DNA of 64,000 nt from Pontiella sp. GTDB taxonomy: Bacteria; Verrucomicrobiota; Kiritimatiellia; Kiritimatiellales; Pontiellaceae. Numbering within the stretch: the stretch's first letter is position 1; each line of letters starts with the position of its first letter. The stretch lies in assembly GCA_050290185.1 (NCBI GenBank), contig JBNKHE010000007.1:96001-160000 (forward strand), read 5' to 3'. Positions 14,814 to 32,252 of the stretch are shown here, one piece after another. The translations under genes were made by a program, and so were the position numbers. Under the pieces are notes generated by a model. The model did not search any database and was not told where the DNA came from. It was given only the letters and a program-made list of their open reading frames with translations.

Positions 14814-15761
14814 ATGGGTAAAACTTTCAGCAAAGTGGCTGTTTTGATGGGCGGTGTTTCATCGGAACGTGAAATTTCATTGAAATCGGGCAAAGCGATT
14901 GCGCAGGGACTGCGCGAGGGTGGATATGAGGTGCGGGAAATAGACATAACCGCAAAGCAGTTTTCCATCCCTGCGGATATCGAGGCGGTTTTTGTGGCGT
15001 TGCATGGGCAGTTTGGCGAGGATGGAGAAATTCAACAGATCCTGTCCGAAAAAGGAATGCCCTTCACGGGCTCGGGGCCGGAATCCAGCCGGGTCTCCTT
15101 CGACAAGATTCTAACCCGCCGGCAACTGGAGAAAAACGGCATTCCGATACCCCGGGGCGAGGTGGTTAAGAAAGCTTCGGACCGGACTGTTCCCGTACCG
15201 CTGGTGGTGAAACCACCCCGCGAAGGATCAAGCGTAGGGTGCTATCTGGTTTTCGAGGAACATGCGTGGGAGTCGGCATTCGAGGGCGCGGTGCAGTATT
15301 CCGGGGAGGTGCTGGTGGAGGAATACATCCCGGGTCGCGAGCTGACGGTCGGGGTGGTGGAGTCGATATCGCACGAGCCTTCGGCATCCGCTGTAGCTGC
15401 AGCAGACCAGTCGGCGACCAGACTCGTGCTGCCGGTGGTGGAGATAAAGACGGTGTCGGAGTGGTATGACTTCGATGCAAAATATGTGACCGGCGATACG
15501 CAGTATGTTGTACCTGCCGAGCTGGATGACGAGACAACTGTGCGGTTGCAATCCATCGCCCTTGCGACATTCGACTGCCTGGGAGCCTCGGGCTTTGGCC
15601 GGGTCGATTTCAGGCTGTCTCCCGAAGGCAAACCCTATGTGCTGGAGCTGAATGCCATCCCCGGATTTACCGCCACAAGTCTGCTCCCTAAAGCCGCTCA
15701 GGCGCATGGAATCGGTTTTTCAGAGCTTTGTTGTCGAATCATGGAAATGGCTCACTTGTGA
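14814..15761 (+). CDS. ddl: D-alanine--D-alanine ligase (last codons supplied by the island)
   Basis: GGVSSEREISLKSG, LHGQFGEDG, EGSSVG, RVDF and LELNAIPG motifs. Confidence 0.96.
   Translation: MGKTFSKVAVLMGGVSSEREISLKSGKAIAQGLREGGYEVREIDITAKQFSIPADIEAVFVALHGQFGEDGEIQQILSEKGMPFTGSGPESSRVSFDKILTRRQLEKNGIPIPRGEVVKKASDRTVPVPLVVKPPREGSSVGCYLVFEEHAWESAFEGAVQYSGEVLVEEYIPGRELTVGVVESISHEPSASAVAAADQSATRLVLPVVEIKTVSEWYDFDAKYVTGDTQYVVPAELDDETTVRLQSIALATFDCLGASGFGRVDFRLSPEGKPYVLELNAIPGFTATSLLPKAAQAHGIGFSELCCRIMEMAHL
15736..15754 (+). repeat. attL direct repeat
   Basis: GAATCATGGAAATGGCTCA, 18/19 identical to 31357..31375. Confidence 0.9.
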
Positions 15762-15857: not shown

Positions 15858-17570
15858 ATGATGACACCAATCAATATTCCGCATTCCAAGCCTAGAGGGA
15901 AGCGAGGCACCTATGTCTATCGCCGAAGTATTCCGAAGGAGCTGCGGGAGAGTGTTGGGCAATCTGAGTATGTGATTTCGCTGAAGACCTCCAATCCCGT
16001 TGAGGCTGCTCCTCTGGCCATTGCCTTGGATGAGGAGCATACAGCTCTCTTCAAGCGTCTTAAGAGGCAGCTGGCGGAAGGACGTAAACCTGTTGACCCA
16101 TTAGCCGCCTTCAACGAGGTGCTAGCTCCCATGGTTCGCGATAGGGTAAACAGCTTTCTTAACGATGATGATTTCCTTGGCTGTTCAACCGAAGCCCTAG
16201 AAGAATACCACTGGCAGCTTCAACAATGCCATGACCGACTCTTCAATCTCCCTGAACTGGGTGACTGTCTATTGGATATCCATCTGGTTCATGAGGGGGC
16301 AACGATGACTCTCAAGGATTCCATGAGGCGTTTCTGTGGGTGGGTCGAGAGTATGCCCTATGGGACATCTATTCGGCTGTGGCGAAGAGTGCGCGGTCTG
16401 TTTGATGAAGCTACTAAAGCTCTAGGCGACGGGATCAAGGAGGAGTTGGAGAATGCATCTCCAGCCGGTTGGGAGCCTAGACAGTTGGTGGCCGCTGCCG
16501 CCGTCACGAAGAGAGATGACTCCAGAGGCCGAAGTTTGCGGGTAATCCTGAAGGAGTACCTTGGGTTAAACACCAAACGTGCTCCGAGTGCTATTCAAGG
16601 GATGACAAGCGACTTGGACTTATTCTTGGAGTTCTGTCAGAAGAGCGATATGGCCGTGACGGATGTGACGAAAGCAATGCTTACCGCCTTTCGGGATGAC
16701 TGCCTAGTGAAGCTGCCAGCCCAAAGGCACAGGAAGAAGGAACTGAAGGGTAAGAGTCTCTCCGAATGTATTCGTATCACAGAGAAGGAAGGCTTTGCCA
16801 AGCTGACTCCTGTCACCATACATGGCCGCTTTAAGACCCTCAGGACGCTCCTAGAACACGCGAAGACCGAGGGTGATATCCAGAGGAACCCAGCGGCCAA
16901 CATCAAGGCGGGGGAGCGTATGAAGGTCATTGCAGGGGGCGGCATGATGAATAAGAAGGCGTTCACCGCTGATGAGACAGAGGAAATGAAGAAGCTCATT
17001 GGGGATGAAAGCTTCAATATTTGGTTGGAGACCCCCGACTTTAAGTGGATTACGGCAATCGGCTATCACCAAGGCATGCGGTTAGGGGAAGTAACCCAGC
17101 TACAGAGCAAGGATGTTTACCTAGATCAAAGTAGTGGGGCGTATGTCATTTCGATTAATGATGATCACGAGAAAAAGAGTCTCAAGAAGCAATCCTCTAG
17201 GCGAATCATTCCGTTGCATCCTGAGCTACGCAAAATGGGGTTTCTTGAATACATCGATGCCAAGGGTATGCAGCCAGATGATTTCATCTGGTCTCAGAGT
17301 CTGAGCTGGGAGCCAAAGTGTAAATGGTATGGTAAGTATACTTCCACATACAGACGAAAGATTGCACCTGTGGCAGTACCTGATGCAGACCGGAGGAGGG
17401 AGCTTAAAGGATATCATTCGCTACGGCATTCGGCAATCTCTCGGATGCTGGCCAATGGGATTCCTGAAGATGAACGCAAAGGTATCGTAGGGCATAGTGC
17501 GGGGGATGTTCATGCTGGATATGCTGGGGGCATTACCGTTCAGCAGATGGCTAAATGGATGACCTATTAG
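15858..17570 (+). CDS. Tyrosine integrase with DUF6538-like N-terminus
   Basis: YVYRRSIPKEL...ISLKT N-terminus; catalytic GMRLGE, HSLRH, GH and Y (HAGY). Confidence 0.93.
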   Translation: MMTPINIPHSKPRGKRGTYVYRRSIPKELRESVGQSEYVISLKTSNPVEAAPLAIALDEEHTALFKRLKRQLAEGRKPVDPLAAFNEVLAPMVRDRVNSFLNDDDFLGCSTEALEEYHWQLQQCHDRLFNLPELGDCLLDIHLVHEGATMTLKDSMRRFCGWVESMPYGTSIRLWRRVRGLFDEATKALGDGIKEELENASPAGWEPRQLVAAAAVTKRDDSRGRSLRVILKEYLGLNTKRAPSAIQGMTSDLDLFLEFCQKSDMAVTDVTKAMLTAFRDDCLVKLPAQRHRKKELKGKSLSECIRITEKEGFAKLTPVTIHGRFKTLRTLLEHAKTEGDIQRNPAANIKAGERMKVIAGGGMMNKKAFTADETEEMKKLIGDESFNIWLETPDFKWITAIGYHQGMRLGEVTQLQSKDVYLDQSSGAYVISINDDHEKKSLKKQSSRRIIPLHPELRKMGFLEYIDAKGMQPDDFIWSQSLSWEPKCKWYGKYTSTYRRKIAPVAVPDADRRRELKGYHSLRHSAISRMLANGIPEDERKGIVGHSAGDVHAGYAGGITVQQMAKWMTY

Positions 17571-17730
17571 GTATTGGCTACCAAGGCCGCTTGAAGCTTG
17601 AGTGGTTGCATAGGAAAATCTCGAAGATTAGTTGGTAGTTGCGCTGGCGACTCTTCATAGAAATAAGAGGCCCAATCTGAGGTTACCCCTCGGAGTGGGT
17701 CTTGCTGTTTCAACGCCTAGAGTGTTCTGT

Positions 17731-20136
17731 TTAGGATTGTTGGGGTCTTTTCTTTATGAGTTTCCGGAACTGAGGTTGCTTGTTCCTCCATGTGAACCAA
17801 TACTCTACTCCAAGATAGAGCTCGTTCGTTCTGTCACAGATCTCAAAAAAATCCTTGTTATAAGATGCGTATTGCTTGTGTTTGTCGCTGGCTTTCTTCC
17901 ACGCTGTTGGCAAACCATTATGATCGGCACAGAGCTCTGTGCTGGTTAAAATCAGAATGTTATTGTATGGGCGACCAGCAACACGATTCGCTCTCGCCTT
18001 GTTTACCAATGGTTTAATCAACTTAATCTCATCAGGGCTCAACTTATCTTTCATGGTTGAAAAAACGAGAGTACAGCGTGGAAACTCTCTACCTAAGCGA
18101 CTCATGCGAGTGACATCTTTCTTTTCGAACAAGTTGAATGTTTTGCATTCTGCAAATATTACGATTTTCTTCGGGGCACCGTATCTTGATTCTTCGAAGA
18201 GAATCCCTAGGTCTGCTTCTAGGGGTTTTTGAGCTCCACCTTCTGATTTGCGAGCAGTAAAACTCATCATGGTAGTAGTAGCACCTTCAAAGACGCTTCT
18301 AAAAAACCTGAGTGACAGCAATACAGAGTAAGCACCTTGTGCGCTATTGGGTAAGCTAAACGGGCCGATCGTTCGGTAAGTCCATTTTAGAGCGTCAGGA
18401 TCTCCTGATGGTATTTCATAGGAGTCCAGACATTTTGGACACATCAGTGTGTAATCAGCTTCTGTGATTGAGAACCAAGACCGTTGCTGGCAAGTTGGGC
18501 ATTGACACTCTATCCCTAGTTGAAGCGCTCTACTATTTATTAACCCTTCGATAGTTCTGGTTCCGTCATCGTATAATCCTTCTTTATTGGCGATTTGTTT
18601 AATTCTATCGCGAAGTGCTTTCTTTTTTATGGTTTTCCCTTCGGAGTGCTCTGAAAGTAGCTTGATAACTCCCTTCGTAGCTAGAATGCCAATATACAAC
18701 TCTCCTCCGAGTTGCTTCAGCATTTGGGTTGCGATTCGTCCGGCTGTAGAGAGCTCAATATCCCATCCCTTTGCCTTCATCCATGAAGAAAAAACAGTTG
18801 TAGGGTTTAGAATCGGAACATGGATGTTCCATCTCGGAAAATCAGCTAAGTAAACTAGACCTTTTTTCGATAAGCGCCACTTAGGGTAGAACAATGGGAT
18901 ATGCATAGTTCTCTCATCATCTGGAAGAACTTCTGCTACAAGTTCGGAGATGGAATAGATGCGTACTTTTACTTCATTCGCAAAATGGGGGCCTCCACTC
19001 TGAGGGTATTTGGTAGCAAAAGATGGCGCTAAAGTATCGACGGTGGCTCGGTCTCCTGATACGCGTATATCATAACGGTCTACATTATCGCTCTCAATGG
19101 TATAGCTTACATTCTCCTGCGACTCATTTTGCCATATATGCGGGTACCAAGGTTGAGTAAAAAACTTAGCGTCACTCTTCTGCTCTGCAATAACTGCTCT
19201 TATATCCGAGATAAATGAATCTAGTTGATCTTTGGAGATATGAGCACTTGGTATTATAGTTGCCGCACGAATATCTGCCGGATTATCGGGGTTCCGATAT
19301 GTTTCTTCCGCCAAGAACTTAAACACTTGATCCAGTACGCTCTCGGTATCACTAACCTGAATCGGGATTGGTATTATGTTTCGCGCTGTCGCTCTGAGGT
19401 TTAAGTAATCGATGACATCTAGCGGCTGTGAAGCATCTAAGACGAATACACTTGAGTTGCCTAGGTGAAGATTTGTGGTTCGTACATCGCCGATGTAAAG
19501 AGAGGTCATTCTGCGATGAAATAAGTTCTGTGGATCAAGCAGGTCGAGAAAGTTGGTTAGTGAACAATCCACATCAACAAACTCTAGGGCGCTATACATT
19601 CCGCTCTTGGAATACAGTTCCTCAACTTCTTTACAGAGCGAGCCAAAGACAGAGGACAAAAAGAGTTTGTAAGGATGTCCGAAGGCTGGTGTTACTATTT
19701 TTGGGAGGTTACTGGGCTTAAATCGAAGCTCTTTTCTGTAATAATGGCGAAGTACCTCAAACGCACTAATACCATGAGAGATCGTTCCATCATTGCGAAT
19801 GCTTGCGATGAGGTCTGAAGCATATATGACTTCCCTGTTTTTACATGAAGAATGTTCCTTATCGGTTTTGTGGAAGCAGACAATGAAGTCTGGATCATAG
19901 CTATCTATATAACCTTTAACAAGGTCTGCTGGCTTCGCATTCGATGCAAATCGTTTTTTCCAGCTGCTAGGAATCCTTCTCAATAAAGGTATTGTTGGAT
20001 TATATTGTCCACCCCAAAGGAATGTATTGATTTCTATGGCCTTCAATAGTGATTTGGTGTCGTTGGGCCGAACCAGGAATGCGAGTCGTAATGGTCGAAG
20101 AGTTTGTTCAATATTGACATTGTCCATCGCATTCAT
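17731..20136 (-). CDS. 801-aa protein with Zn ribbon and C-terminal PD-(D/E)xK-like nuclease; putative defence protein
   Basis: CPTC...CPKC; EADL...FAECK; AAGGA RBS; AT-rich cargo gene. Confidence 0.7.
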   Translation of the reverse strand: MNAMDNVNIEQTLRPLRLAFLVRPNDTKSLLKAIEINTFLWGGQYNPTIPLLRRIPSSWKKRFASNAKPADLVKGYIDSYDPDFIVCFHKTDKEHSSCKNREVIYASDLIASIRNDGTISHGISAFEVLRHYYRKELRFKPSNLPKIVTPAFGHPYKLFLSSVFGSLCKEVEELYSKSGMYSALEFVDVDCSLTNFLDLLDPQNLFHRRMTSLYIGDVRTTNLHLGNSSVFVLDASQPLDVIDYLNLRATARNIIPIPIQVSDTESVLDQVFKFLAEETYRNPDNPADIRAATIIPSAHISKDQLDSFISDIRAVIAEQKSDAKFFTQPWYPHIWQNESQENVSYTIESDNVDRYDIRVSGDRATVDTLAPSFATKYPQSGGPHFANEVKVRIYSISELVAEVLPDDERTMHIPLFYPKWRLSKKGLVYLADFPRWNIHVPILNPTTVFSSWMKAKGWDIELSTAGRIATQMLKQLGGELYIGILATKGVIKLLSEHSEGKTIKKKALRDRIKQIANKEGLYDDGTRTIEGLINSRALQLGIECQCPTCQQRSWFSITEADYTLMCPKCLDSYEIPSGDPDALKWTYRTIGPFSLPNSAQGAYSVLLSLRFFRSVFEGATTTMMSFTARKSEGGAQKPLEADLGILFEESRYGAPKKIVIFAECKTFNLFEKKDVTRMSRLGREFPRCTLVFSTMKDKLSPDEIKLIKPLVNKARANRVAGRPYNNILILTSTELCADHNGLPTAWKKASDKHKQYASYNKDFFEICDRTNELYLGVEYWFTWRNKQPQFRKLIKKRPQQS

Positions 20137-20691
20137 CCTTCTTTAACCCATCAACAAGTAACCTATTTCATTTTTTGGTGCAATCATCTGAATGCCTATA
20201 TGTGAAAGAAGCGAGTCCAAGTTTCCCCCGTGGGGGTATCGTTTCGATAGGGGTGGGGGAGCTGAAAACACCCACTAATAGGATGGGGAGACAGAAGGTC
20301 ATCCCATATGGTAAAGTTGTGCGGCTCGTTGCTTGGAGACTCCTAGTTGCTCTCCTATACGGGTAAAGCTCTGGCCTTCGGTCTCCACTATTGAAGAGGA
20401 AGACGCTCAGTCTCGGTATCATTCTGTATCAAATAGACCAATCAACAGCACAGGACTCGTTCTTCTTATTACGTTGTAGCCAAGCATATCAACACCGATT
20501 GCAAAACCGTACGTCGATCCTATTGTTCGACAGCATTGTGAGAGAATCCGAGTATTTACTGAGTCCCGCCCCAATCAAATCGACAAGCAACAGGGCTGAC
20601 CTCGTGACTTCTCTTAGCTGCTTACTTTAGGAAGAAAGCGTCCTTCTGAACGTCCAGTTCAAAGAATCGGTTTATTGTGTCTAGAATAGGT

Positions 20692-20898
20692 GGCACCCAT
20701 GCATGCTTCATCCCGCATATGAACCAGATTCTTAGGTCTGTATTCTGCCGCATGTATGGCGACACGAATATGCTGGCTGAGTTCAAGAGGCAGATCGAAG
20801 AGCAGAGCGAGGGCTTCGATGTGGAATACCCTGAGCCGCCTACCCAAGGCGGTCTCGATGTAAGTCAGGTGATGTATTCGCAGTACTTTTTTGCCTAG
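20692..20898 (+). pseudogene. C-terminal fragment of a T7-type single-subunit RNA polymerase
   Basis: GTHAC..HMNQILRSVFCRMY...LAEF...PEPPTQGGLDVSQVMYSQYFFA* matches the post-motif-C end of T7/mitochondrial-type RNAPs; the upstream HDS motif is missing. Confidence 0.85.
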
Positions 20899-20940
20899 CC
20901 TGCATCACTAGTGTTACACCCTGTCAGAGAGGGTGTTGCG

Positions 20941-20963
20941 CTTATTCCCTCACTATAGGAAGA
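20941..20963 (+). promoter_or_regulatory. T7/T3-like phage RNAP promoter (+1 about 20958)
   Basis: CTTATTCCCTCACTATAGGAAGA vs T7 TAATACGACTCACTATAGGGAGA and T3 AATTAACCCTCACTAAAGGGAGA; 42 nt after the RNAP fragment stop. Confidence 0.75.
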
Positions 20964-21294
20964 ATGACGGGCAACTCTCCGTTTCTCTTCAAGCCACACC
21001 CGTGGCCACTCTCTTGCGTATCAGCCTCACCGCCTTCCATGGTTTTTGTTTCTCCTGTCCATGGTCGAGCGGTCGAGCATCGCTTTGGTTTTGCTGAGCT
21101 GCTTGGCTAACTTAGTGGGGAACCTATGGGCTATTGCCCGTACCCGCTCAAAGCCTCACTCAAAGATTTTCTCTCGATGCATCTCAAACCGCTGCAAATA
21201 GATAGGTACATATTTGTAGTGTTTGTGGTCGCTTCACGAGGCAGCAACTTGTTTGCCCATTCCCATTTTAATCAACCTAAGAAAGGAACCCAAA

Positions 21295-23055
21295 ATGTTA
21301 AACACAAAAGAAGTATTCGACCTTGCAAGAGCACAGAAGTTAACCCTAACGGATGATCCGTTGGCAGTCGTAAATGCGTACCCAGATAGTCTCGGTGTTC
21401 AGCTTTTCGATTGGCTTTGGGGAGAACTCGTTGAGGAAGGCCGAACGACACGCAATAAGCCAAACTTTAAATGCACCCGAACGGGAAAGGACTTGCGCGG
21501 AGTTGAAGTTAAACGTCAAGCAATGGCCGCTGTGCTGCTAGACCTCCTGTATTATGATGTCGTGGCCATCTACGGTGACGAACATATGTACACGCGCAAA
21601 GTGGGGCTTCCTGATCGATTGTCAATCAGTGGAATAGCTGTTCCTTCATGGTATCGCTATTCATCACTTTTGGTTTGGCTTGAGGCTGAACTTAAGCACC
21701 GCAACCTGTTGACTGTTTCGCAGGGGTGGCCAACTTTTCAGAACGAGAAGAGCGGCTATAAGATCACAGGTAGGCCAAACCTTTGGGCTGCTGATGGGCG
21801 ACTTCTGACACGACTTGAACTCGTGAAATCCTGTTCCAATCTCGCGGGGTTCTTCCCAGAGAAACGGCGGGACTGTATCGACCTGAAGCAAAACGGGGAG
21901 TCGGACTATTTACGAGCACCAGACCTCCTGATTCAAAAGAAGGATGAACTTGGTAAGGCTCAACCTTGGGCTGTATCCGGTAACTCTCTTGCTGATGAAA
22001 CCCGAAGACGTTTACTCGCAGTCAATCGCTTCAATGTTGAACATGATTGGACGGCATACCGTGCGAATCTAAGTGATGCCTTGAGTATAAGCGACACTCT
22101 TCGGGAACGGTTACTGTTTGCTCAAAATATGGATGACAAGCAGAAGCGGAAAGCTCGTCGAAGAGCTGCCGCTGATATGCTCGGTGTAACACACGGAGGG
22201 GACATTGAGTTCCGCAAGACCGTTGAGGTGATGCCGAATGTCTTCTCCAATGTTGAAGTGCCGGTAGGTGTCTTATCAAAGCAGTCAGAGCCGATCTTCA
22301 AGAACATACCTGTTGACCGTCGAGGGAACACGATGCTTCTGGAGTACGAGCGGAAGCTGGTTGACCCATGGCACACCATGCGGATTGCTGGCAGTCGGTC
22401 GGAAGAGATGGCTATCGGTCGAATGTATTGGAGCATGTCGCATATTCAGAAAGCACTTCGATTTTCACTTCAGGTGAACGGAGAGTCGACAGTTGAATGG
22501 GACTTCAAAAATATGCATCCGAAAATCTTGTACGGTCGAGCCGGTATCAAAGAGGTAACCCATGACCTCTATGATTATGTGTGTGATGAAGTGGGGGACT
22601 CAGAGCTGGTCTTGAGGCCACTCGTTAAGGTGCTCTTCAATGCCATGATAAATGCTAAGACCCCCGATGAGGCATTTCGTGCCGCTAATCGGAGCATGTA
22701 TAAGAATCCACACCAACCAAAGAAGCGGGATGTTTGGCTACCCATTGCGGAGAAAGTCAGAGGTCTAAACAATGGAGTTTACTCTTCGGATTTTCTGATG
22801 CCGATTATCCGAAAAGTTCATGCCCCCATTGCCGATTATTTCTGTACCGGTATTGGAGTAGAGCTTCAGGCTGTGGACGCTGAGATCGCTCTGAGGGTCA
22901 TGGAAAGATGTACTCAAGATTACGGACAACCGGTTGTCGGTATTCACGATTCGTTCCGTGTCCAAGAGTCGGCTGAGAGTTCGCTCAGACAGGTGATGAG
23001 GGAAGTCTCGGAAGAGATTCTAGATGGGACGGTTCTGGAGATAACGAAGAGCTGA
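21295..23055 (+). CDS. Divergent superfamily-A (PolA/T7-RNAP-like) polymerase with no recognisable exonuclease domain
   Basis: GRMY; motif A EWDFKNMHPKILY; motif B RPLVKVLFNAMIN; motif C GIHDSF; AAAGGA RBS before ATG 21295. Confidence 0.8.
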   Translation: MLNTKEVFDLARAQKLTLTDDPLAVVNAYPDSLGVQLFDWLWGELVEEGRTTRNKPNFKCTRTGKDLRGVEVKRQAMAAVLLDLLYYDVVAIYGDEHMYTRKVGLPDRLSISGIAVPSWYRYSSLLVWLEAELKHRNLLTVSQGWPTFQNEKSGYKITGRPNLWAADGRLLTRLELVKSCSNLAGFFPEKRRDCIDLKQNGESDYLRAPDLLIQKKDELGKAQPWAVSGNSLADETRRRLLAVNRFNVEHDWTAYRANLSDALSISDTLRERLLFAQNMDDKQKRKARRRAAADMLGVTHGGDIEFRKTVEVMPNVFSNVEVPVGVLSKQSEPIFKNIPVDRRGNTMLLEYERKLVDPWHTMRIAGSRSEEMAIGRMYWSMSHIQKALRFSLQVNGESTVEWDFKNMHPKILYGRAGIKEVTHDLYDYVCDEVGDSELVLRPLVKVLFNAMINAKTPDEAFRAANRSMYKNPHQPKKRDVWLPIAEKVRGLNNGVYSSDFLMPIIRKVHAPIADYFCTGIGVELQAVDAEIALRVMERCTQDYGQPVVGIHDSFRVQESAESSLRQVMREVSEEILDGTVLEITKS

Positions 23056-23288: not shown

Positions 23289-24092
23289 ATGCAAAAATCA
23301 AACAGAAGAAACTTCACGCCTTCACCCGTAGCTGTAGCAATGGCTTCCCCCAAAGGTGGACTGAGCCGCGAGGAACAGATAAGGCGTGACCGTCTGGCCA
23401 ACGCAAAGAAAGGATCGAATGAGGCCGTAAAGGTGAAGGCCAAAAGCCGTCGCTATGGGTTGACCCAGAAGGGGAATAGCTCCGGCATACCTTGTGTCGG
23501 TCTCGCTCGCTTCAACCCTAAGATGCTGAGTCGCCATACTCGGAAAAGCATTCTGCCCGCTCAGTTGGGGGTAGCTGCTGCATTGGGCCACCTACCAAGA
23601 GGAGATAAAACTCTCCCACTCCAAGCAATATGGCGACAACGTACACGAGCCGGTAGCGGCGACCGTGTAGCAAGGGGCTTGAAGCCAGCCAAGACGCGAG
23701 TAACAACGTGTCTCTTGGAAGCTGGCGTTTGGTCTGACACCGATAACGATGTCATTGCGGGGAAGTTCAAAGGATCTCACCTTGGATGCCAAGCGGCAGC
23801 GGATGGCTACTGCGAGAAACTCGGACAATGCCGCCTTTTGCTAGAGACCCTCGTGAGGCTTGGAGAGTTCTCTCAGCTACCCGATGCCAATCAGCGTCAA
23901 GATAAGCTACTGCATCTTCCTTCAAGTCGTACCTGTTGCGTAGGCTGGAAGCGGCTCCTGTACTGTCTGCTGCTGCCGACCAAATGCGCGGACTTCATGA
24001 CTGACTCAGCGCGTAACCTTGTTGCTCAACTGGCTAGGAACGCTGGGCTAACCGTTGACCGCCATGGGAACTGCGAGGAGCCGAAACGATGA
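23289..24092 (+). CDS. Hypothetical basic protein
   Basis: TAAGGAG RBS; 267-aa Lys/Arg-rich ORF co-oriented with the polymerase. Confidence 0.7.
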   Translation: MQKSNRRNFTPSPVAVAMASPKGGLSREEQIRRDRLANAKKGSNEAVKVKAKSRRYGLTQKGNSSGIPCVGLARFNPKMLSRHTRKSILPAQLGVAAALGHLPRGDKTLPLQAIWRQRTRAGSGDRVARGLKPAKTRVTTCLLEAGVWSDTDNDVIAGKFKGSHLGCQAAADGYCEKLGQCRLLLETLVRLGEFSQLPDANQRQDKLLHLPSSRTCCVGWKRLLYCLLLPTKCADFMTDSARNLVAQLARNAGLTVDRHGNCEEPKR

Positions 24093-24177
24093 ACACAACA
24101 CAATCATGCAGCCGACTAAGCTTCAGAGAAAAAAGGGCAGTCCATACCGCCCGTGAGTGTATGGGGAAAGAAAGTAA

Positions 24178-24789
24178 ATGATTAGACAGCTAAGCTTCAC
24201 AGATGCTGTGAGGCGTGAGGCTCTTGCTAAAAGTAGACTTGAACGAGTCAACCAGAAGTTAGAAGCCATAGGGGATAATAAGTCCTCAACGATGAAGCGA
24301 GAGCTTCTGTCGAAGCGGGAACTGCTGCTGAAAAAGAAAGAAAGGCTTGAAGTGACCCTTCGAGATATTCAGCAGATGGTTGCTGCACACCAAACCAGAA
24401 CCGGTAAGGAACTTCCATATGTTCGGCATTGTCAGTTGAAGGCTGAGGCTGATGCCAAGGAACAACTGAGAGTAGAGCTTGAGCATCTGAAAGCAACTGC
24501 AACAGAACTCCCTGAGGGTGGCAAGGTAGTCAATGACTCCGATGCCATTCTTCAAGGTGTGAGTCAAGAAGCGTTGGACGCTGGGTTGCTCCAGATTCAA
24601 GAAACTCTCAGTGGTTTACTTAGAGGGAAGCCTCTGGTTGAAGTCCCCTCAGATGTTAAGCGTACACCGCCCAAGCCAAAGCCCAAGGTATCACCTGTAG
24701 CTGCCCCGATGAATAAACCCACGGTTGCACCTGCTCTAGACCTGAGCGGTCTTGATGAACTCTTGGCGGAATGCGAGGCGTTGCCGTGA
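24178..24789 (+). CDS. Hypothetical coiled-coil protein
   Basis: Heptad-rich N-terminal half, Pro/Lys linker, acidic tail. Confidence 0.75.
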   Translation: MIRQLSFTDAVRREALAKSRLERVNQKLEAIGDNKSSTMKRELLSKRELLLKKKERLEVTLRDIQQMVAAHQTRTGKELPYVRHCQLKAEADAKEQLRVELEHLKATATELPEGGKVVNDSDAILQGVSQEALDAGLLQIQETLSGLLRGKPLVEVPSDVKRTPPKPKPKVSPVAAPMNKPTVAPALDLSGLDELLAECEALP

Positions 24790-25277
24790 GACATCCAGAA
24801 CATTCAAGGCACTACAGCCTAGAAGCAAGGCAGAAGCTGGATGCTATCTATCGGCGCATTGATCGAAACCAAATGATGAAGGAAGCAGAGCAGCTAAAGT
24901 ATCCTGAAGGCCGTCTCCCCACGCCATGGCCTGAGCGGTATCAACGGCTGTATGATAAGTGGCTAGAGTTGGAGCATGAAGGCTTCGCGATACGACTCCA
25001 TGAAAGTAGAAGATTCAATGATGAGCTTTCGTCCAAGTACTGCGAGAAACTCAGAAAGCTTCACTCCATCTGGCGGTACTTACCTGAAGATGATCCGCGA
25101 AAAGTTGCAACCCAAGCGGCCATCGAAAAGTTGGTGAATCATATCAATGGTCAGATGGAAGGCTTAGCCTATTTGTTTGTTCCTGAGCTGAAACCAACAA
25201 ACCGCCTTTGCGGTGGAATCTCAGATTCAGCACTCAATGAGATAGCCAGCGACTATGTTTCGAAAGCAGGGTGCTAA
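24786..25277 (+). CDS. Hypothetical protein
   Basis: GTGA start/stop overlap with the upstream gene. Confidence 0.7.
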   Translation: MRHPEHSRHYSLEARQKLDAIYRRIDRNQMMKEAEQLKYPEGRLPTPWPERYQRLYDKWLELEHEGFAIRLHESRRFNDELSSKYCEKLRKLHSIWRYLPEDDPRKVATQAAIEKLVNHINGQMEGLAYLFVPELKPTNRLCGGISDSALNEIASDYVSKAGC

Positions 25278-25278
25278 G

Positions 25279-25653
25279 ATGGATGAACCTAAGGCCACCA
25301 CAAGCGACCGACTGAGTGCTCTATGCAATCAACTCCAGGGATTGCTCAAAGTCCGCCATGAGCTGCCTCATTTGACCGTCACACCGTCCGAGTTGGTTGA
25401 TCATGAGTCAGGTATGGTTTGTCTGACTGTCACCTTCAAGGACGGCAAGAAGCTCCTCTCGGTTATCACTGGAGATGCAGACCTCAATGCAGAGGAAGGT
25501 GTCAACGATATGGTGACACTCCGAGCGGAAGCCCATCGCTGCCTATGTGGGTATCTCCAGTCTATGTGGGATATGTTGGTCGCCAACGAAGAGTTGCTTG
25601 TGGACTTTAACTCGAAGATCCGCACAAAGAGAACTCTTGGCGGCGGTGCGTAA
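25279..25653 (+). CDS. Hypothetical protein
   Basis: ATG 1 nt after the upstream stop. Confidence 0.7.
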   Translation: MDEPKATTSDRLSALCNQLQGLLKVRHELPHLTVTPSELVDHESGMVCLTVTFKDGKKLLSVITGDADLNAEEGVNDMVTLRAEAHRCLCGYLQSMWDMLVANEELLVDFNSKIRTKRTLGGGA

Positions 25654-25905
25654 TCCCATCAAGAAACAAACAGTAGGTGAAGTGGCCTGCAACCCATCAC
25701 ATTTTATCCGTCGGTGAAATGACCGATACCCTAGACTCGACGGCAGAACTTGCCGCTCTTAACCGAACGTCCCTCAACACCTAAATCAGTAATCAAGACC
25801 CCGTTGTAGCTATGCATAAAGTATGGCGCGGGGTCTTGCTGGTTTACACCGATTGTATTTTGCAATCACAGGCTCTCTCCGCCTATGGAGAAGAAAGCAT
25901 GTACG

Positions 25906-26241
25906 ATGAAAAGTTACACTGACTACACCCCTGAAGAGTTGTCCGAACTCTCCAAAGACCCAGCTAGGTTTCAAGAGCTGGTTGCCGAGGCCAACGGCGA
26001 ACTTGCAATGAAGCAGAACGCTCAGCAAGCCGAACAGGCAATCGCTCAGAACAAAGCCAATGCTGAACTTGAAGTCACCCAAGAGCGCGAACGCCAAGTT
26101 GAAGACCTCCAGCAGCATTTGGATGCTCAAGGCTACAACGCAAAAATGACCGGCAAAGGGTTGGTCTTGAATACAGCTCCAATGAACCCGCTTACGGGTC
26201 GGGCCTATGGCGACACAGGTGCAACCGTAGACGCTGGCTAG
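25906..26241 (+). CDS. Hypothetical Gln/Ala-rich coiled-coil protein
   Basis: ORF in the same direction; helical composition. Confidence 0.7.
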   Translation: MKSYTDYTPEELSELSKDPARFQELVAEANGELAMKQNAQQAEQAIAQNKANAELEVTQERERQVEDLQQHLDAQGYNAKMTGKGLVLNTAPMNPLTGRAYGDTGATVDAG

Positions 26242-26282
26242 AAACCGAACCACAATCAAAACTATCAAAAGGAATAAACTAA

Positions 26283-26843
26283 ATGAAAAACGAAGCAAAC
26301 ACCCAAGAGTTCACCCTGCCTAAGCAACTGAATATCACCACTACTGTTCCAACCTCACAGCTGCCTCTTCTTCGAGTTGAGACCGTCGAGGGAATGAGCA
26401 TTGCGGCAAACGACAGGGTGAACCTGCCTTGGTTGGCGGCCAATCTGCACCTAATCACTGAAGCCCAGTGGGAGTTCATTAAGTGCGACCTGAAGAGCAT
26501 CCTAATGGGAATCCTAATGGAGAACGTCAACGCGACGAAGCGGAACCAACGCATGGTCGAGACCGCCCAGAAGCAAGCAGACGCACGTAAGGCGGCTCAA
26601 GAGGAGTCCAACCTGTCTGACTTGAAGAAATACCTGTTGCCTTCCGAGGCCGCCATTATGGCTGCCACATGCGGGAACTCATCTTCCAAGGAAAAGAAGT
26701 TCATGGTGAACCTCTTCAAGGAGCTGGATATCATGAACCCAGACGGCTCGTGGAATGAACAGGGAATCTACATGCGAGAATGGGAGCTTGAGGCAAAACT
26801 TTTGGATCGTGAGCCTGTGAATCTCGTTGAAGTGCCGAAGTAA
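26283..26843 (+). CDS. Hypothetical protein
   Basis: AAGGA RBS; followed by a terminator. Confidence 0.75.
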   Translation: MKNEANTQEFTLPKQLNITTTVPTSQLPLLRVETVEGMSIAANDRVNLPWLAANLHLITEAQWEFIKCDLKSILMGILMENVNATKRNQRMVETAQKQADARKAAQEESNLSDLKKYLLPSEAAIMAATCGNSSSKEKKFMVNLFKELDIMNPDGSWNEQGIYMREWELEAKLLDREPVNLVEVPK

Positions 26844-26874: not shown

Positions 26875-26915
26875 AAACAGGGAGAGTGCCATTAAGGTGC
26901 TCTCTCTGTTTTTTT
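26875..26915 (+). terminator. Intrinsic terminator ending the polymerase operon
   Basis: AAACAGGGAGAGTGCC-attaa-GGTGCTCTCTCTGTTTTTTT. Confidence 0.85.
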
Positions 26916-27120: not shown

Positions 27121-27798
27121 GTGAAAGAGGGTTCTAGTAAGAAAAAAACTTCGATTGACTGGAAAGGTGTATGGGCCGCCGTCGGGTTGCTGTTTGTTGC
27201 ATCCTGCTTGTATTCATATACCCATGATACATTTGCCACACTGGGTGTGCTTATTTTTGCAGTTATAGTCATGGCGGCTAGAAAGAAATACAATGAATTG
27301 TTTGTTCTGATTTGCCTTTTCTCGTCCATATTTTTCTACATCATTGGTGCAGCACACATCGCAATCGTTATTGTGTGCATACTTCTCATTCAACAGTTCA
27401 TTCGCACCATCAATAGAAAATTTAACTATGATGAAGTTTTTCCTTATTTTGGCATATTAACGATCCTTATTGGGTTTTATTCTGGAATCTATGCAAAGTA
27501 CGGAATGCTGGAAAACGGAAAGCTGATTTACGATCAACCTAGCGCTACATATTTTAGTATCGTTACATGGACGACTCTTGGCTATGGGGATATCCAGCCG
27601 AGTGAAGAATCAAGAGGTTGGGCTGCAAGCGAAGCACTGTTAGGTTATATTTTCATGGCACTTGGCATCGCATTGTTTGCTCATGTAGTGAACTCTAGGC
27701 AACATTTGCGCTCAGAAATGGGGGCGATGAAGATTAGTGAGAACGAAGCACCCGCTTCACAATCGCATAATAACGGTGATAGAAATGACACTCGGTGA
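27121..27798 (+). CDS. Potassium channel family protein (Ion_trans_2-like pore)
   Basis: YFSIVTWTTLGYGDIQP pore helix and selectivity filter; extra N-terminal TM helices. Confidence 0.85.
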   Translation: MKEGSSKKKTSIDWKGVWAAVGLLFVASCLYSYTHDTFATLGVLIFAVIVMAARKKYNELFVLICLFSSIFFYIIGAAHIAIVIVCILLIQQFIRTINRKFNYDEVFPYFGILTILIGFYSGIYAKYGMLENGKLIYDQPSATYFSIVTWTTLGYGDIQPSEESRGWAASEALLGYIFMALGIALFAHVVNSRQHLRSEMGAMKISENEAPASQSHNNGDRNDTR

Positions 27799-28564
27799 AA
27801 TTACGATTATTTTTGCGGTTTTAGAAGTTCCAATCATGCTGTTGGGCAAGCTCGATTATTATCTTTCTGCGAGCGTAAAAGACAAAGTCGGTGATCTCTT
27901 ACTAGCAGTAAATCAATCGGTTAAGCATGCATTGTCATGGAGGTTCTATTTTGTGTTGCTGTTTTTCAGCATGTTTTTTACGACGATTATTTTCGGTTTT
28001 ATGGGTTTGGCAGATGTTTTCCTAAGTTCAGGAAGCTCCGAGACGATAGCGTTAAAATCAGCAGCGCCCATATTATTGGCTTTGGTTTTGAAAGTTATCT
28101 TTTGGGATTACTTAATGGCACTAAAGTCGGCGTGGCTTATGAAAGCATACCTATCAGTTGAGGTGGTCACGAAAGCAGACAAAGCTCAGCTTGTAATAAG
28201 TATTTTCACAGACCTTGCTTTAACTGCATTTCTAACAAGTATATTTATTAATTTCGGAGGGCTTCTTCAAGAGCATGCCTCTGATGTTGCAAGCTCAGAA
28301 GTTGTCCGCCCATTGTCACTGAAGCTATCTGAGTTCTTTGATGAGATTAAGTTTGCTATAATGAAATCTGTACAAAATGCTCATTATTTTTTGAATGGAT
28401 CGCTGGCGTTCTATATCTGCTTTATGCTTGCTTGGCTCGGAAGAGATGAAAGCGGAATCACAGAATCAGGTCGAATTCGAACATCTCCATTTCAGACTAT
28501 TTCTTTGATTCTGACGATATTGATAGTGGTGCTATTGGGTGCCTTTTATATGGCGGACAAGTAA
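27785..28564 (+). CDS. Multi-pass membrane protein
   Basis: About 6 hydrophobic segments; overlaps the channel gene stop. Confidence 0.75.
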   Translation: MTLGEITIIFAVLEVPIMLLGKLDYYLSASVKDKVGDLLLAVNQSVKHALSWRFYFVLLFFSMFFTTIIFGFMGLADVFLSSGSSETIALKSAAPILLALVLKVIFWDYLMALKSAWLMKAYLSVEVVTKADKAQLVISIFTDLALTAFLTSIFINFGGLLQEHASDVASSEVVRPLSLKLSEFFDEIKFAIMKSVQNAHYFLNGSLAFYICFMLAWLGRDESGITESGRIRTSPFQTISLILTILIVVLLGAFYMADK

Positions 28565-28720: not shown

Positions 28721-29299
28721 TCATGACAGGGTGGTTTGATTCCCTCGCCGCAAATCAGCAGGAAGTAGTTTGTCGATTTCTTGTTCTGAAAACGTGAGTT
28801 CTTCGTTTACCTGTAATGCTGTCGTTGCGGCCTTATATGCCTTGCTGATAGTGCGGGGGCTTCCTTCATAAATATTTTTCAACTGCATTTGCAGAGCATC
28901 CCTTCTGTTAATTATTTCATCGGTGTTGATGACTCCGGCATTGATGTCAGTTAGAAGGGCTAAATAGCTTTCACGCACATCCCATAGGTCATTTGCTGCA
29001 TCAGAGTGTTTTTGTGAAACTTGGCCGAGGTCACTTCCTTTGACGTAGGTGTTAAGTGCTAGCAACGCCGCAGAGATAAGACCTGTTATAATGCCGCATA
29101 CTGGACTCTCTCCCAGCACGGTGGTAAATACGCCTGTGGTTGTTAATGCCGACAAGATAATCTGAATGATTTTGATGGTTGAGTTGCGTGAGAATACAAT
29201 GTCAGCACACTTTTCTTGGGTTTTGTGGCTCCATGCAACTCGACCAAAGCATTCACGGATATGCGACTCAAGGATCTTAACTTGGGAATCGGACGCCAT
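28721..29299 (-). CDS. SLATT-family 2TM effector (CBASS)
   Basis: IRECFGRVAWSHKTQEKCADI, two TM helices, LWDVRESY; overlaps the CD-NTase end. Confidence 0.85.
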   Translation of the reverse strand: MASDSQVKILESHIRECFGRVAWSHKTQEKCADIVFSRNSTIKIIQIILSALTTTGVFTTVLGESPVCGIITGLISAALLALNTYVKGSDLGQVSQKHSDAANDLWDVRESYLALLTDINAGVINTDEIINRRDALQMQLKNIYEGSPRTISKAYKAATTALQVNEELTFSEQEIDKLLPADLRRGNQTTLS

Positions 29300-30158
29300 A
29301 AATCTCTCTCCATTTCTGCTTTGCTGACCATTCTTTATTTTTTGACTGATATTCGATTGCTTCAAGTGATTTATTATATGCAACTGTCGCTTTATATCTG
29401 AAGTTTGTAATGTTTGAAATCCACTGACCACTACCTATTGCAAACCACAAGGTTTTATCTGATGGCTCGTTCTTGAGATATTGAAAAAAATCTCGGCTCA
29501 TCCAGTCATAGTACAGGTAAGATTGGTGTTTATTACTCCAGTTGGTAAGAAAACGGTAGGCGAGAGTATCGATTAGAAGACCATTAATCGGAACTGTGCA
29601 GTAATATTTCCATGCCCGAGCCATTCGGCATAGGTTTTTTAGGTTATAGTTGGTAAGAATGTTCCCGTTGTTGATGGCGTCTATTTCGGGAATCGGATTC
29701 GTGACCTTCCAGCTTCCACCATTATTTGAGTCTGCATGAGTGTATTTATTATCAGTACCTACTTTGAAAACAGGGAGTACCTCAAACTTCGTCTGGTCGG
29801 AAAAATCCACTGTAACTATCTGACCGTCCCCTTTAAGTGTGGTCGTTGGATATGTTTTGGCAATAGAGTTCTTTACAGCCTGAATCAATGCTGACTGGCC
29901 ATTTCCAAGATAATCACTGTATTGGTGGTATGTTCGTAGTGGCATTTCAAATAGCATGTCAATATCACTTACCCACCCATTAGCAGTTCCGCGACCGTAT
30001 GAACCCACGAATCTTCCTCCTGAGGTCGTGTCCATGTGCCAGAAATCAAGATTTAGGCGCTTACAAATAGCTAAATACCTATCTGAAATAGTCGACTTCA
30101 TATTTGTGGAGATCTTTAGATCATCGCTAAAGTGCTTAAAATATTGCTCTTCACTCAT
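29277..30158 (-). CDS. SMODS/CD-NTase cyclic oligonucleotide synthase (CBASS)
   Basis: VGSYGRGTA...SDIDMLF, DGQIV, FEVLP, GSWKVTNP and NLCRMARAWK motifs. Confidence 0.9.
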   Translation of the reverse strand: MSEEQYFKHFSDDLKISTNMKSTISDRYLAICKRLNLDFWHMDTTSGGRFVGSYGRGTANGWVSDIDMLFEMPLRTYHQYSDYLGNGQSALIQAVKNSIAKTYPTTTLKGDGQIVTVDFSDQTKFEVLPVFKVGTDNKYTHADSNNGGSWKVTNPIPEIDAINNGNILTNYNLKNLCRMARAWKYYCTVPINGLLIDTLAYRFLTNWSNKHQSYLYYDWMSRDFFQYLKNEPSDKTLWFAIGSGQWISNITNFRYKATVAYNKSLEAIEYQSKNKEWSAKQKWREIYGVRFPS

Positions 30159-31186: not shown

Positions 31187-31354
31187 ACATTCAAGTGCAA
31201 GACCGGTTTGGCTTGGAGATTTCTTGCTGAGGCGAAATTATTTTCATACCTCGACCTGATACAGCAATCAGTACATATTTCAAAATGTATCAAAATATCA
31301 CCTTTTGTAAGGTTTTGCATTGCAGTGATTTAGTGTTTTGGTCGAAGGTGGGCG

Positions 31355-31383
31355 TTGAATCATGGGAATGGCTCATCTATAGT
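31355..31383 (+). promoter_or_regulatory. Putative hybrid sigma70 promoter for ftsQAZ across attR
   Basis: TTGAAT-N17-TATAGT, 26 nt upstream of the ftsQ ATG. Confidence 0.6.
31357..31375 (+). repeat. attR direct repeat (displaced original ddl 3' end)
   Basis: GAATCATGGGAATGGCTCA followed by TCTATAG, reading MAHL*. Confidence 0.9.
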
Positions 31384-31409: not shown

Positions 31410-32252
31410 ATGGCTGCTCGGAAGACGAAGAAATCACAATATAAACCGCAATATGTAAGGGCCAAAAAACGCAAGGGAGCGGATAAGGCCGTGGTTGCCC
31501 AAAGAAGCGTCGTGGTGCTTGTGGTTTTGTTGATTCTGGCCGCCCTCGCCATTGGAATCGGACTGGGATTCCGGTGGGTCGGCAAGAAGCTTTTTTCCGA
31601 AAACCCACGGTTTGAAATCCAGCATCTGGAAATCACCTGCGACGGAAAGTTGAGCGAAGAGAAAATCCGGGAATATACCGGGTTGCATGAAGGCATGAAT
31701 CTTTTTGCCTTGTCGTTCGAGGAGATTCAGAACGAACTGGGCAAGGTGCCGATGGTTGAATCGGTCGAACTCGAGCGCAAGTTGCCCAGTACGCTTTCGG
31801 TTGTCGTCAAGGAGCGTGTTCCGGTTGCGCGGGTTCTGATCCATAACTACAAAACGCCGCGCCTCATGGATCGGTACGGTGTTGTCCTTCCTCCGCGTGT
31901 GAGTGCTAAACTGGCAACGCTTCCGCTCATTAAAGGACTCGATGACGAGGTCAGGGTGGGGGAGCGGACGGAAAACCGCGATGTGGATTGTGCTCTCGAA
32001 ATCATCGGACTGTGCGAAAGCAACCAAAAGCTGCACCGGTTCGTGCCTCTGGATAGCCTTGATCTCAAATACGACGATTATATGGATATGCGCCTTGAAG
32101 GTGGGATCCGGGTGCGTATGCCCCGCTACCGGCTGGGCCCCAAACTGCAGGAACTGGCGGCGATTATTCAGATCTCCACGGAACAGGGGCGGCGGGTGAA
32201 AGAGGTCGATCTGACGCTGGAGACCGGCAAGGCCGTCACCACCTATTACTGA
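31410..32252 (+). CDS. ftsQ: Cell division protein FtsQ/DivIB
   Basis: TM helix, POTRA region, ERKLPSTL..VKERVP; upstream of ftsA. Confidence 0.9.
   Translation: MAARKTKKSQYKPQYVRAKKRKGADKAVVAQRSVVVLVVLLILAALAIGIGLGFRWVGKKLFSENPRFEIQHLEITCDGKLSEEKIREYTGLHEGMNLFALSFEEIQNELGKVPMVESVELERKLPSTLSVVVKERVPVARVLIHNYKTPRLMDRYGVVLPPRVSAKLATLPLIKGLDDEVRVGERTENRDVDCALEIIGLCESNQKLHRFVPLDSLDLKYDDYMDMRLEGGIRVRMPRYRLGPKLQELAAIIQISTEQGRRVKEVDLTLETGKAVTTYY

Follow-up and report, generated by a model that had tools for sequence, protein, structure and literature searches.

The window (the whole 64,000-nt stretch of DNA that was analysed) contained a 15,621-bp (15.6-kb) island bounded by 22-nt repeats starting at positions 15733 and 31354, at the 3′ end of ddl and before ftsQ. 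Related-strain contigs from two runs joined position 15754 to about position 31441, as an empty site would, and no circular island junction was seen in the contigs. One contig from run X2 joined position 16750 to position 29432, spanning 12.7 kb of the island with a 28-nt side; this joint is perhaps a deletion variant or an artefact. The features of the island and their coordinates are collected in Table 1.

Table 1. Features of the island and of the phage-like cassette within it (window coordinates).
Feature	Position	Strand	Remarks
attL-like direct repeat, 3′ end of ddl	15733–15754	+	22 nt, 91% identical to 31354–31375
Tyrosine integrase, DUF6538 N-terminus	15858–17570	+	
Second, degenerate promoter-like 23-mer and hairpin	17643–17703	+	weak, spotted by eye
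801-aa ORF, unnamed widespread family	17731–20136	-	zinc-ribbon, nuclease-like C-terminus
Candidate left-boundary homologue of a T7-type terminal repeat	20166–20238	+	putative terminase cut just before 20199
3′-terminal 68 codons of a T7-like RNA polymerase gene	20691–20898	+	begins just past the catalytic HDS motif
Phage-inherited hairpin	20916–20936	+	loop identical to phage; stem changes retain pairing
Predicted phage RNA polymerase promoter, -17 to +6	20941–20963	+	putative start G at 20958
Predicted 586-aa minimal A-family (TV-Pol-like) polymerase	21295–23055	+	acidic motifs A and C intact
Six co-oriented orphan ORFs, remainder of the putative transcript	23289–26843	+	
Intrinsic terminator-like hairpin, end of operon	26875–26911	+	16 pairs and a T run
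CBASS pair: SMODS cyclase and SLATT 2TM effector	28721–30158	-	opposite strand to the promoter
attR-like direct repeat before ftsQ	31354–31375	+	

In total, the island had an integrase, att repeats, an empty site in relatives and no virion genes of its own (no structural PHROG match in the island), the features expected of a satellite. No match to a primase, a helicase or AlpA was found among the island ORFs. The 801-aa ORF had no Pfam, PHROG or PADLOC match; its protein matched many Atlas clusters at 0.98, with an Mrr_cat lead at 0.88, and it is a possible candidate for defence cargo. Pfam, PHROGs, PADLOC and NCBIfam gave no significant family for any of the six orphan ORFs, and the 186-aa orphan had no homologue except itself. 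The island also contained a 239-aa ORF and, at positions 27121–28564, two membrane proteins, one of them potassium-channel-like (Ion_trans_2).

The 586-aa protein was predicted to be a minimal A-family polymerase of the TV-Pol-like type. Its structural model had a pLDDT of 71, and its fold matched family A DNA polymerases at an E value of about 1e-4. In the protein alignment, covering 80 of the 150 matches listed, D403 and H551 were invariant and D552 was near-invariant. A single protein, P0003, was related to the island polymerase along its full length, and no locus was found for it; TV-Pol-like polymerases as a whole comprised 3139 clusters at E ≤ 0.001. In the accessible part of the source, TV-Pol family members are described as minimal A-family polymerases of 400–600 aa carried on mobile elements (PMC2579912). 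The island protein shares with them the minimal A-family palm, the location on a mobile element and the retained acidic catalytic residues, and differs in that the D5-like helicase linked to them there has no counterpart among the island ORFs.

Upstream of this gene lay the remnant of an RNA polymerase gene (Pfam PF00940, E = 5e-10; PHROG 414, E = 5e-15), followed by a hairpin and by the 23-mer for which the original prediction had proposed a T7/T3-like promoter. The 23-mer was recovered exactly as written on the forward strand, facing the island polymerase operon as had been claimed. It was a single copy in the genome of 3,575,434 bases (3.58 Mb), with no second site at ≤5 mismatches. The predicted spacing was correct, the -17 base lying 42 nt past the stop (20898) of the RNA polymerase C-terminal fragment, and the predicted hairpin appeared in the computed fold as a 7-bp stem (20916–20922 paired with 20930–20936). 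A contig from a second sample of the same study (run X4) covered positions 20503–21880 with zero letter differences. No second T7-like RNA polymerase match was found in the genome besides the 68-codon fragment. This fragment is not a functional enzyme, and the island is without a polymerase for its own phage promoter.

The 23-mer motif alone was at chance level, as it was matched at ≤2 mismatches in 46 of 100 window shuffles. The 9-mer at -11 to -3 occurred four times genome-wide, so that about 6e-5 occurrences would be expected in any 100 nt of a single strand. This rarity, combined with an offset equal to that of the promoter of a related phage (described below), placed the position of the site beyond chance. 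A sigma-70 scan gave 22 matches against 21.3 by chance and thus no excess. The proposed likeness to T7 and T3 held against fetched records: positions -11 to -3 were identical to T3 phi1.05/phi1.1 at 9/9 bases and to T7 phi1.1A/B at 7/9. The same nine bases were identical to the related phage as well (9/9), and the G start was present.

A search for relatives of the fragment with greater length returned one protein, the 840-aa polymerase P0001, which was 81% identical across the fragment. Its gene is located on a 43,869-bp contig (G061:C12) that has overlapping ends and is circular. The contig encodes a T7-like SSB, endonuclease, primase-helicase, DNA polymerase and exonuclease, and its ORFs were further read as coding for virion proteins and for an integrase, the latter next to a tRNA-like att piece. 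By this gene content it is judged to be a complete temperate T7-like phage. The contig was binned in a Coriobacteriia MAG. Neither the 201 genomes searched from the window's class nor 80 relatives of the MAG contained a match to the att-like tRNA piece at ≤3 mismatches.

Window positions 20691–20975 aligned with the phage at 207 of 285 nt (73%), an alignment that covers stop codon, hairpin and motif and ends about 18 nt beyond +1. The stop-to-promoter gap is 42 nt in island and phage alike. The core CCCTCACTA occurs six times in G061:C12, as does CCCCTCACTA: on either side of the polymerase gene, ahead of SSB, behind the DNA polymerase gene, and as a divergent pair between the late and early regions. 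All six cores lie outside long ORFs and face adjacent genes. When aligned to T7, P0001 has R, D, R and Q at positions 746, 748, 756 and 758, as in T3. In the available text of PMC11880802, residues 748, 756 and 758 are given as the main specificity determinants, and a D/R/Q–CCCCT pair serves as a control; in that of PMC8874028, N748D alone is insufficient to switch the T7 polymerase. The phage sites read CCCCT and the window site reads TCCCT (T at -12). The specificity-loop residues of P0001 would fit the -12 to -8 bases of the site.

Because the related phage carries the same block, six repeats of the core and matching loop residues, the motif is read as a phage promoter captured together with a gene end. 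By homology, positions 20941–20963 are almost certainly a true promoter for the RNA polymerase of a T7-like phage. The original prediction of such a capture is therefore strongly supported, G061:C12 having the same core at the same offset behind the polymerase gene. The cognate enzyme would be a distant relative of the T7/T3 polymerase, at about 31–33% identity to known phage polymerases, and not that of T7 or T3 itself; the next database relative of P0001 is 38% identical.

Divergence between the window and the phage was nearly the same as that between T7 and T3. Residues of the polymerase end agreed at 55/68 positions for window vs. phage and 57/68 for T7 vs. T3, gene-end bases at 150/207 and 152/207, and promoter bases at 11/17 in both comparisons. 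Among the 57 differences between the fragment and the phage gene, 39 were at third positions, with zero stops and zero indels. On a matrix built from the six phage sites, the island site scored 8.6 bits vs. 24–31 bits for the phage sites (15–27 in leave-one-out scoring), and 438 of 7.14 million genome positions scored ≥8.6 bits. With a flank divergence equal to that of the functional T7 and T3, a different donor with its own flanks, and not decay, would be the simplest explanation of the promoter sequence. From the low matrix score, the G061:C12 phage is probably not the helper.

No closer donor phage was found in IMG/VR with the fragment, the full polymerase, the capsid protein, a degenerate C-terminal pattern or a hairpin-plus-promoter pattern. 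A genome scan for the donor returned the G061:C12 phage contig alone, and no T7-like polymerase gene turned up among 300 other genomes of the class. Five IMG/VR matches to the promoter 18-mer were rejected, having no further island homology (one was read as sitting among unrelated tailed-phage genes), and a metagenome match (L018) was dismissed as a chance hit.

A second phage-like block, which the original prediction did not mention, was located on the promoter's strand about 740 nt upstream of the promoter. In blastn of the island against the phage, the sole further match was positions 20166–20233, 75% over 69 nt, in the non-coding end region of the phage; none of the 12 island ORFs tested matched the phage by tblastn. 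The phage counterpart lies about 500 nt behind a phage promoter, after short CCTWAGG-type repeats arranged in an array. Eleven of 22 matches to this repeat type in the phage fall within 1 kb, and similar repeats occur near the end of T7. Some 10.5 kb separate the two blocks in the phage and 460 nt in the island, with order and strand the same. This order would be that of virion or concatemer DNA; in an integrated prophage it would be reversed.

A terminal-repeat model was built solely from six known boundaries (T7, T3, LUZ100, gh-1, K11 and K1F). Window positions 20167–20236 were its top match in the genome, at 10.4 bits (E 0.0066 in the island and 1.5 in the genome); the same six-boundary model missed the related phage's own site. 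The boundary 60-mers of T7 and of gh-1 each had their single best ungapped match among 7.13 million positions at the block, in register, at 36/60. With other 60-mers the block ranked within 185 (T3), 601 (PHB01), 2980 (K1F) and 8735 (K11), and those of VP4 and LUZ100 did not rank it, so that six of eight known phage ends failed to place it first. Neither a pause motif like that at T7's junction nor an intact promoter just upstream was found at the block. The 20941–20963 promoter points away from it, with a terminator downstream, unlike in T7, where phiOR immediately precedes the repeat. From these comparisons we infer that the block holds a putative terminase cut site before position 20199. 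Two matches to an end-block pattern were discarded as coding DNA of T4-like phages, and no useful match came from a blastn search of GenBank phages with the end block.

Between the integrase and the 801-aa gene, a degenerate 23-mer has T7-type bases at -12 to -7 and faces the terminal-repeat-like block. It is 15/23 identical to one phage promoter, with five mismatches in the -11 to -3 core. Of all 32-mers in the genome, the hairpin that follows it (17667–17703) best matched the one behind the phage SSB promoter (24/32), and it had the same fold; chance likewise reaches this level of match for the other five phage regions.

The cassette and the island DNA were not detected in 53 other genomes of the family. 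Among the other genomes of the order, 12 of 88 had integrase homologues and 10 of 88 had polymerase homologues. One congener (contig G017:C223) has an island composed of an integrase, a 1.3-kb non-coding leader, an A-family polymerase homologue (27% identical to the island polymerase over 205 aa), small ORFs and type I restriction cargo. About 630 nt before its polymerase gene, on the same strand, is a promoter-like site in which 13 nt match one of the phage promoters exactly; its -11/-10 bases differ and no polymerase remnant is alongside. This site was the sole match in the 4.7-Mb congener genome to a shared pattern that was itself derived from the two sites. The pattern occurred once in the window's genome and once in the congener's (these two sites) and once inside an ORF of G078, and was absent from G026 and G038. 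Across the nine order-level polymerase loci with upstream sequence examined, one (the congener) had a clear site, one a weak site and seven none. Such a promoter is therefore not shared by the polymerase family as a whole, being mostly absent at these loci. At 16 phylum-level polymerase loci no clear promoter or polymerase remnant was found within 1.5 kb.

In G078:C1, a weak phage-promoter-like site (L094, 7772–7795) lies 330 nt before a TV-Pol-like gene. Motif matches L080, L081, L082 and L096 were rejected as chance, being in ORFs or far from the polymerase gene. The congener leader has G/C runs and an A/T block at about 15200–15300, where the T7-type end model was unmatched; these are suggestive of phage packaging regions.

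Taken together, the site is best read as a promoter that a helper phage activates, in a satellite-like island carrying an A-family polymerase; to this reading we assign a probability of roughly 0.6. A small cassette would have been copied from a phage into an integrase island: a terminal-repeat boundary, about 460 nt, the polymerase gene end, the hairpin and the promoter. Upon infection by, or induction of, a phage of this lineage, its polymerase would initiate at about position 20958 and transcribe a 5.9-kb unit (the A-family polymerase and six orphans) up to the terminator at 26911. The island would excise at its att repeats and be copied into concatemers with helper proteins and its own, and the helper terminase would then cut the terminal-repeat mimic, allowing the island to be packaged. 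Among these steps operon activation has the better support, and the case for replication priming and for packaging is weaker. In the available text of PMC13236587, T7 replicates and packages plasmids that carry an origin, pac and a terminal repeat. Satellites are typically about one third of helper length according to the accessible part of PMC10803314, and the island is 0.36 of the phage length (15.6 vs. 43.7 kb).

Of the two functions originally proposed for the site, that of an infection sensor is plausible, with comparative support from the congener's promoter-like site. That of a replication primer site in the T7 sense lacks support: the 200 nt after +1 were 43–50% AT, vs. peaks of 77% in T7 and 80% in T3. 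No tandem second promoter lies behind the site (no other site at ≤5 mismatches), and a T7-style origin there is unsupported. The site has the position of phi1.1A and of T3 phi1.05, the latter annotated directly before the primary origin, and the island polymerase is without a primase partner, both of which would suit a site acting mainly as a replication origin, where the phage transcript would act as primer once the island has excised, as it does at the primary origin of T7 and T3. With the AT-rich tract and the tandem promoter absent, and with phage homology stopping about 18 nt after +1, this role is highly improbable.

The cassette could also be an inert relic, left when a hot spot of the island recently took up phage DNA by chance, while host promoters run the operon. 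Continued presence of the useless 68-codon fragment would fit such an origin, as would the low matrix score of the site, its single instance, the lack of such a site at most related polymerase loci and the lack of a known helper in the lineage. We nevertheless consider a relic unlikely: solely cis-acting pieces were retained, from two, perhaps three, distant places in the phage, decay is not apparent, and an independent promoter-like site occupies the same position in the congener without a polymerase remnant. Alternatively, the promoter might sense the phage polymerase and fire an abortive or interfering operon, with no packaging of the island. CBASS and other defence-like cargo in the island and the downstream orphans of no known function are compatible with this defensive trigger, but it is quite improbable, as both CBASS and the 801-aa gene lie on the opposite strand, past the transcript or leading away from it, the first gene of the operon is a polymerase, and defence has no need of a terminal-repeat mimic. 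The CBASS pair is not driven by the 20941–20963 promoter.

The 'T7 islands' of Chen and Schneider (2006) are reportedly integrase islands of enterobacterial chromosomes that carry tandem T7-like promoters and no polymerase of their own. The present island likewise combines an integrase, a T7-like promoter and the absence of a phage RNA polymerase. It differs in having one clear site, with the degenerate candidate 3.3 kb upstream, in place of tandem promoters, and in adding the gene-1 end, the terminal-repeat mimic and the A-family polymerase; its nearest FtsQ clusters belong to Myxococcota, Verrucomicrobiota, Thermodesulfobacteriota and Lentisphaerota and are not enterobacterial. A search of the T7-island literature found citations of the enterobacterial paper only. 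A wider search, covering few subscription journals, found no experimentally characterised satellite switched on by the RNA polymerase of a T7-like phage.

Post-gene-1 promoters of Autographiviridae (T7 phi1.1A/B, T3 phi1.05 and LUZ100 phi2; PMC10134795, in its accessible part) also lie directly behind the polymerase stop and have the -9 to -3 core and G start, and the T3 promoter shares the C at -11/-10. The gap is 42 nt with a hairpin in the island, 8 nt in T7 and 11 nt in T3. Further differences are the -17 to -12 bases, the lack of an AT-rich origin and the setting, which is a chromosomal island and not a phage. PICMI and other satellites, as portrayed in the available text of PMC10803314, resemble the island in having an integrase, a replication gene and defence cargo, in lacking genes for capsid or packaging and in reaching about one third of the helper's size. 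The island has neither AlpA nor primase and is in ddl and not beside fis; it would use activation by a helper RNA polymerase and a fixed terminal-repeat cut, whereas headful packaging is described there. Engineered T7 phagemids (PMC13236587, accessible part) place like cis elements on a non-phage replicon, and differ in that the island is natural, has no intact promoter just upstream of the repeat and shows no evident origin function.

More tentatively, and with somewhat less than even odds, the two islands may belong to a satellite family of temperate T7-like phages in a non-enterobacterial lineage. Each would carry a natural 'phagemid cassette' (helper promoter and terminal-repeat cut site) through which the helper RNA polymerase activates a primase-less TV-Pol-like polymerase, which perhaps extends the helper transcript as primer; capsids would carry trimers, and the defence cargo would be swappable (CBASS here, type I restriction in the congener). 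If so, each island would acquire its own helper's promoter. Such activation of the operon would suggest a role for the widespread TV-Pol-like polymerases on helper-dependent elements, and the cassette points to T7-like phages in a lineage with none found across 300 genomes. As the capture is traceable base by base to a phage lineage whose polymerase sequence is known, the proposed activation can be tested in vitro without host culture. P0001 and its six sites are also a candidate new orthogonal polymerase-promoter pair.

Within G061:C12, the late operon runs opposite to the early and replication genes. The same 5-6-5 palindrome occurs before and right after the phage polymerase gene (positions 201–216 and 2852–2867 of locus L003) and is possibly a repressor operator; the window has a degenerate copy near 20903–20918.
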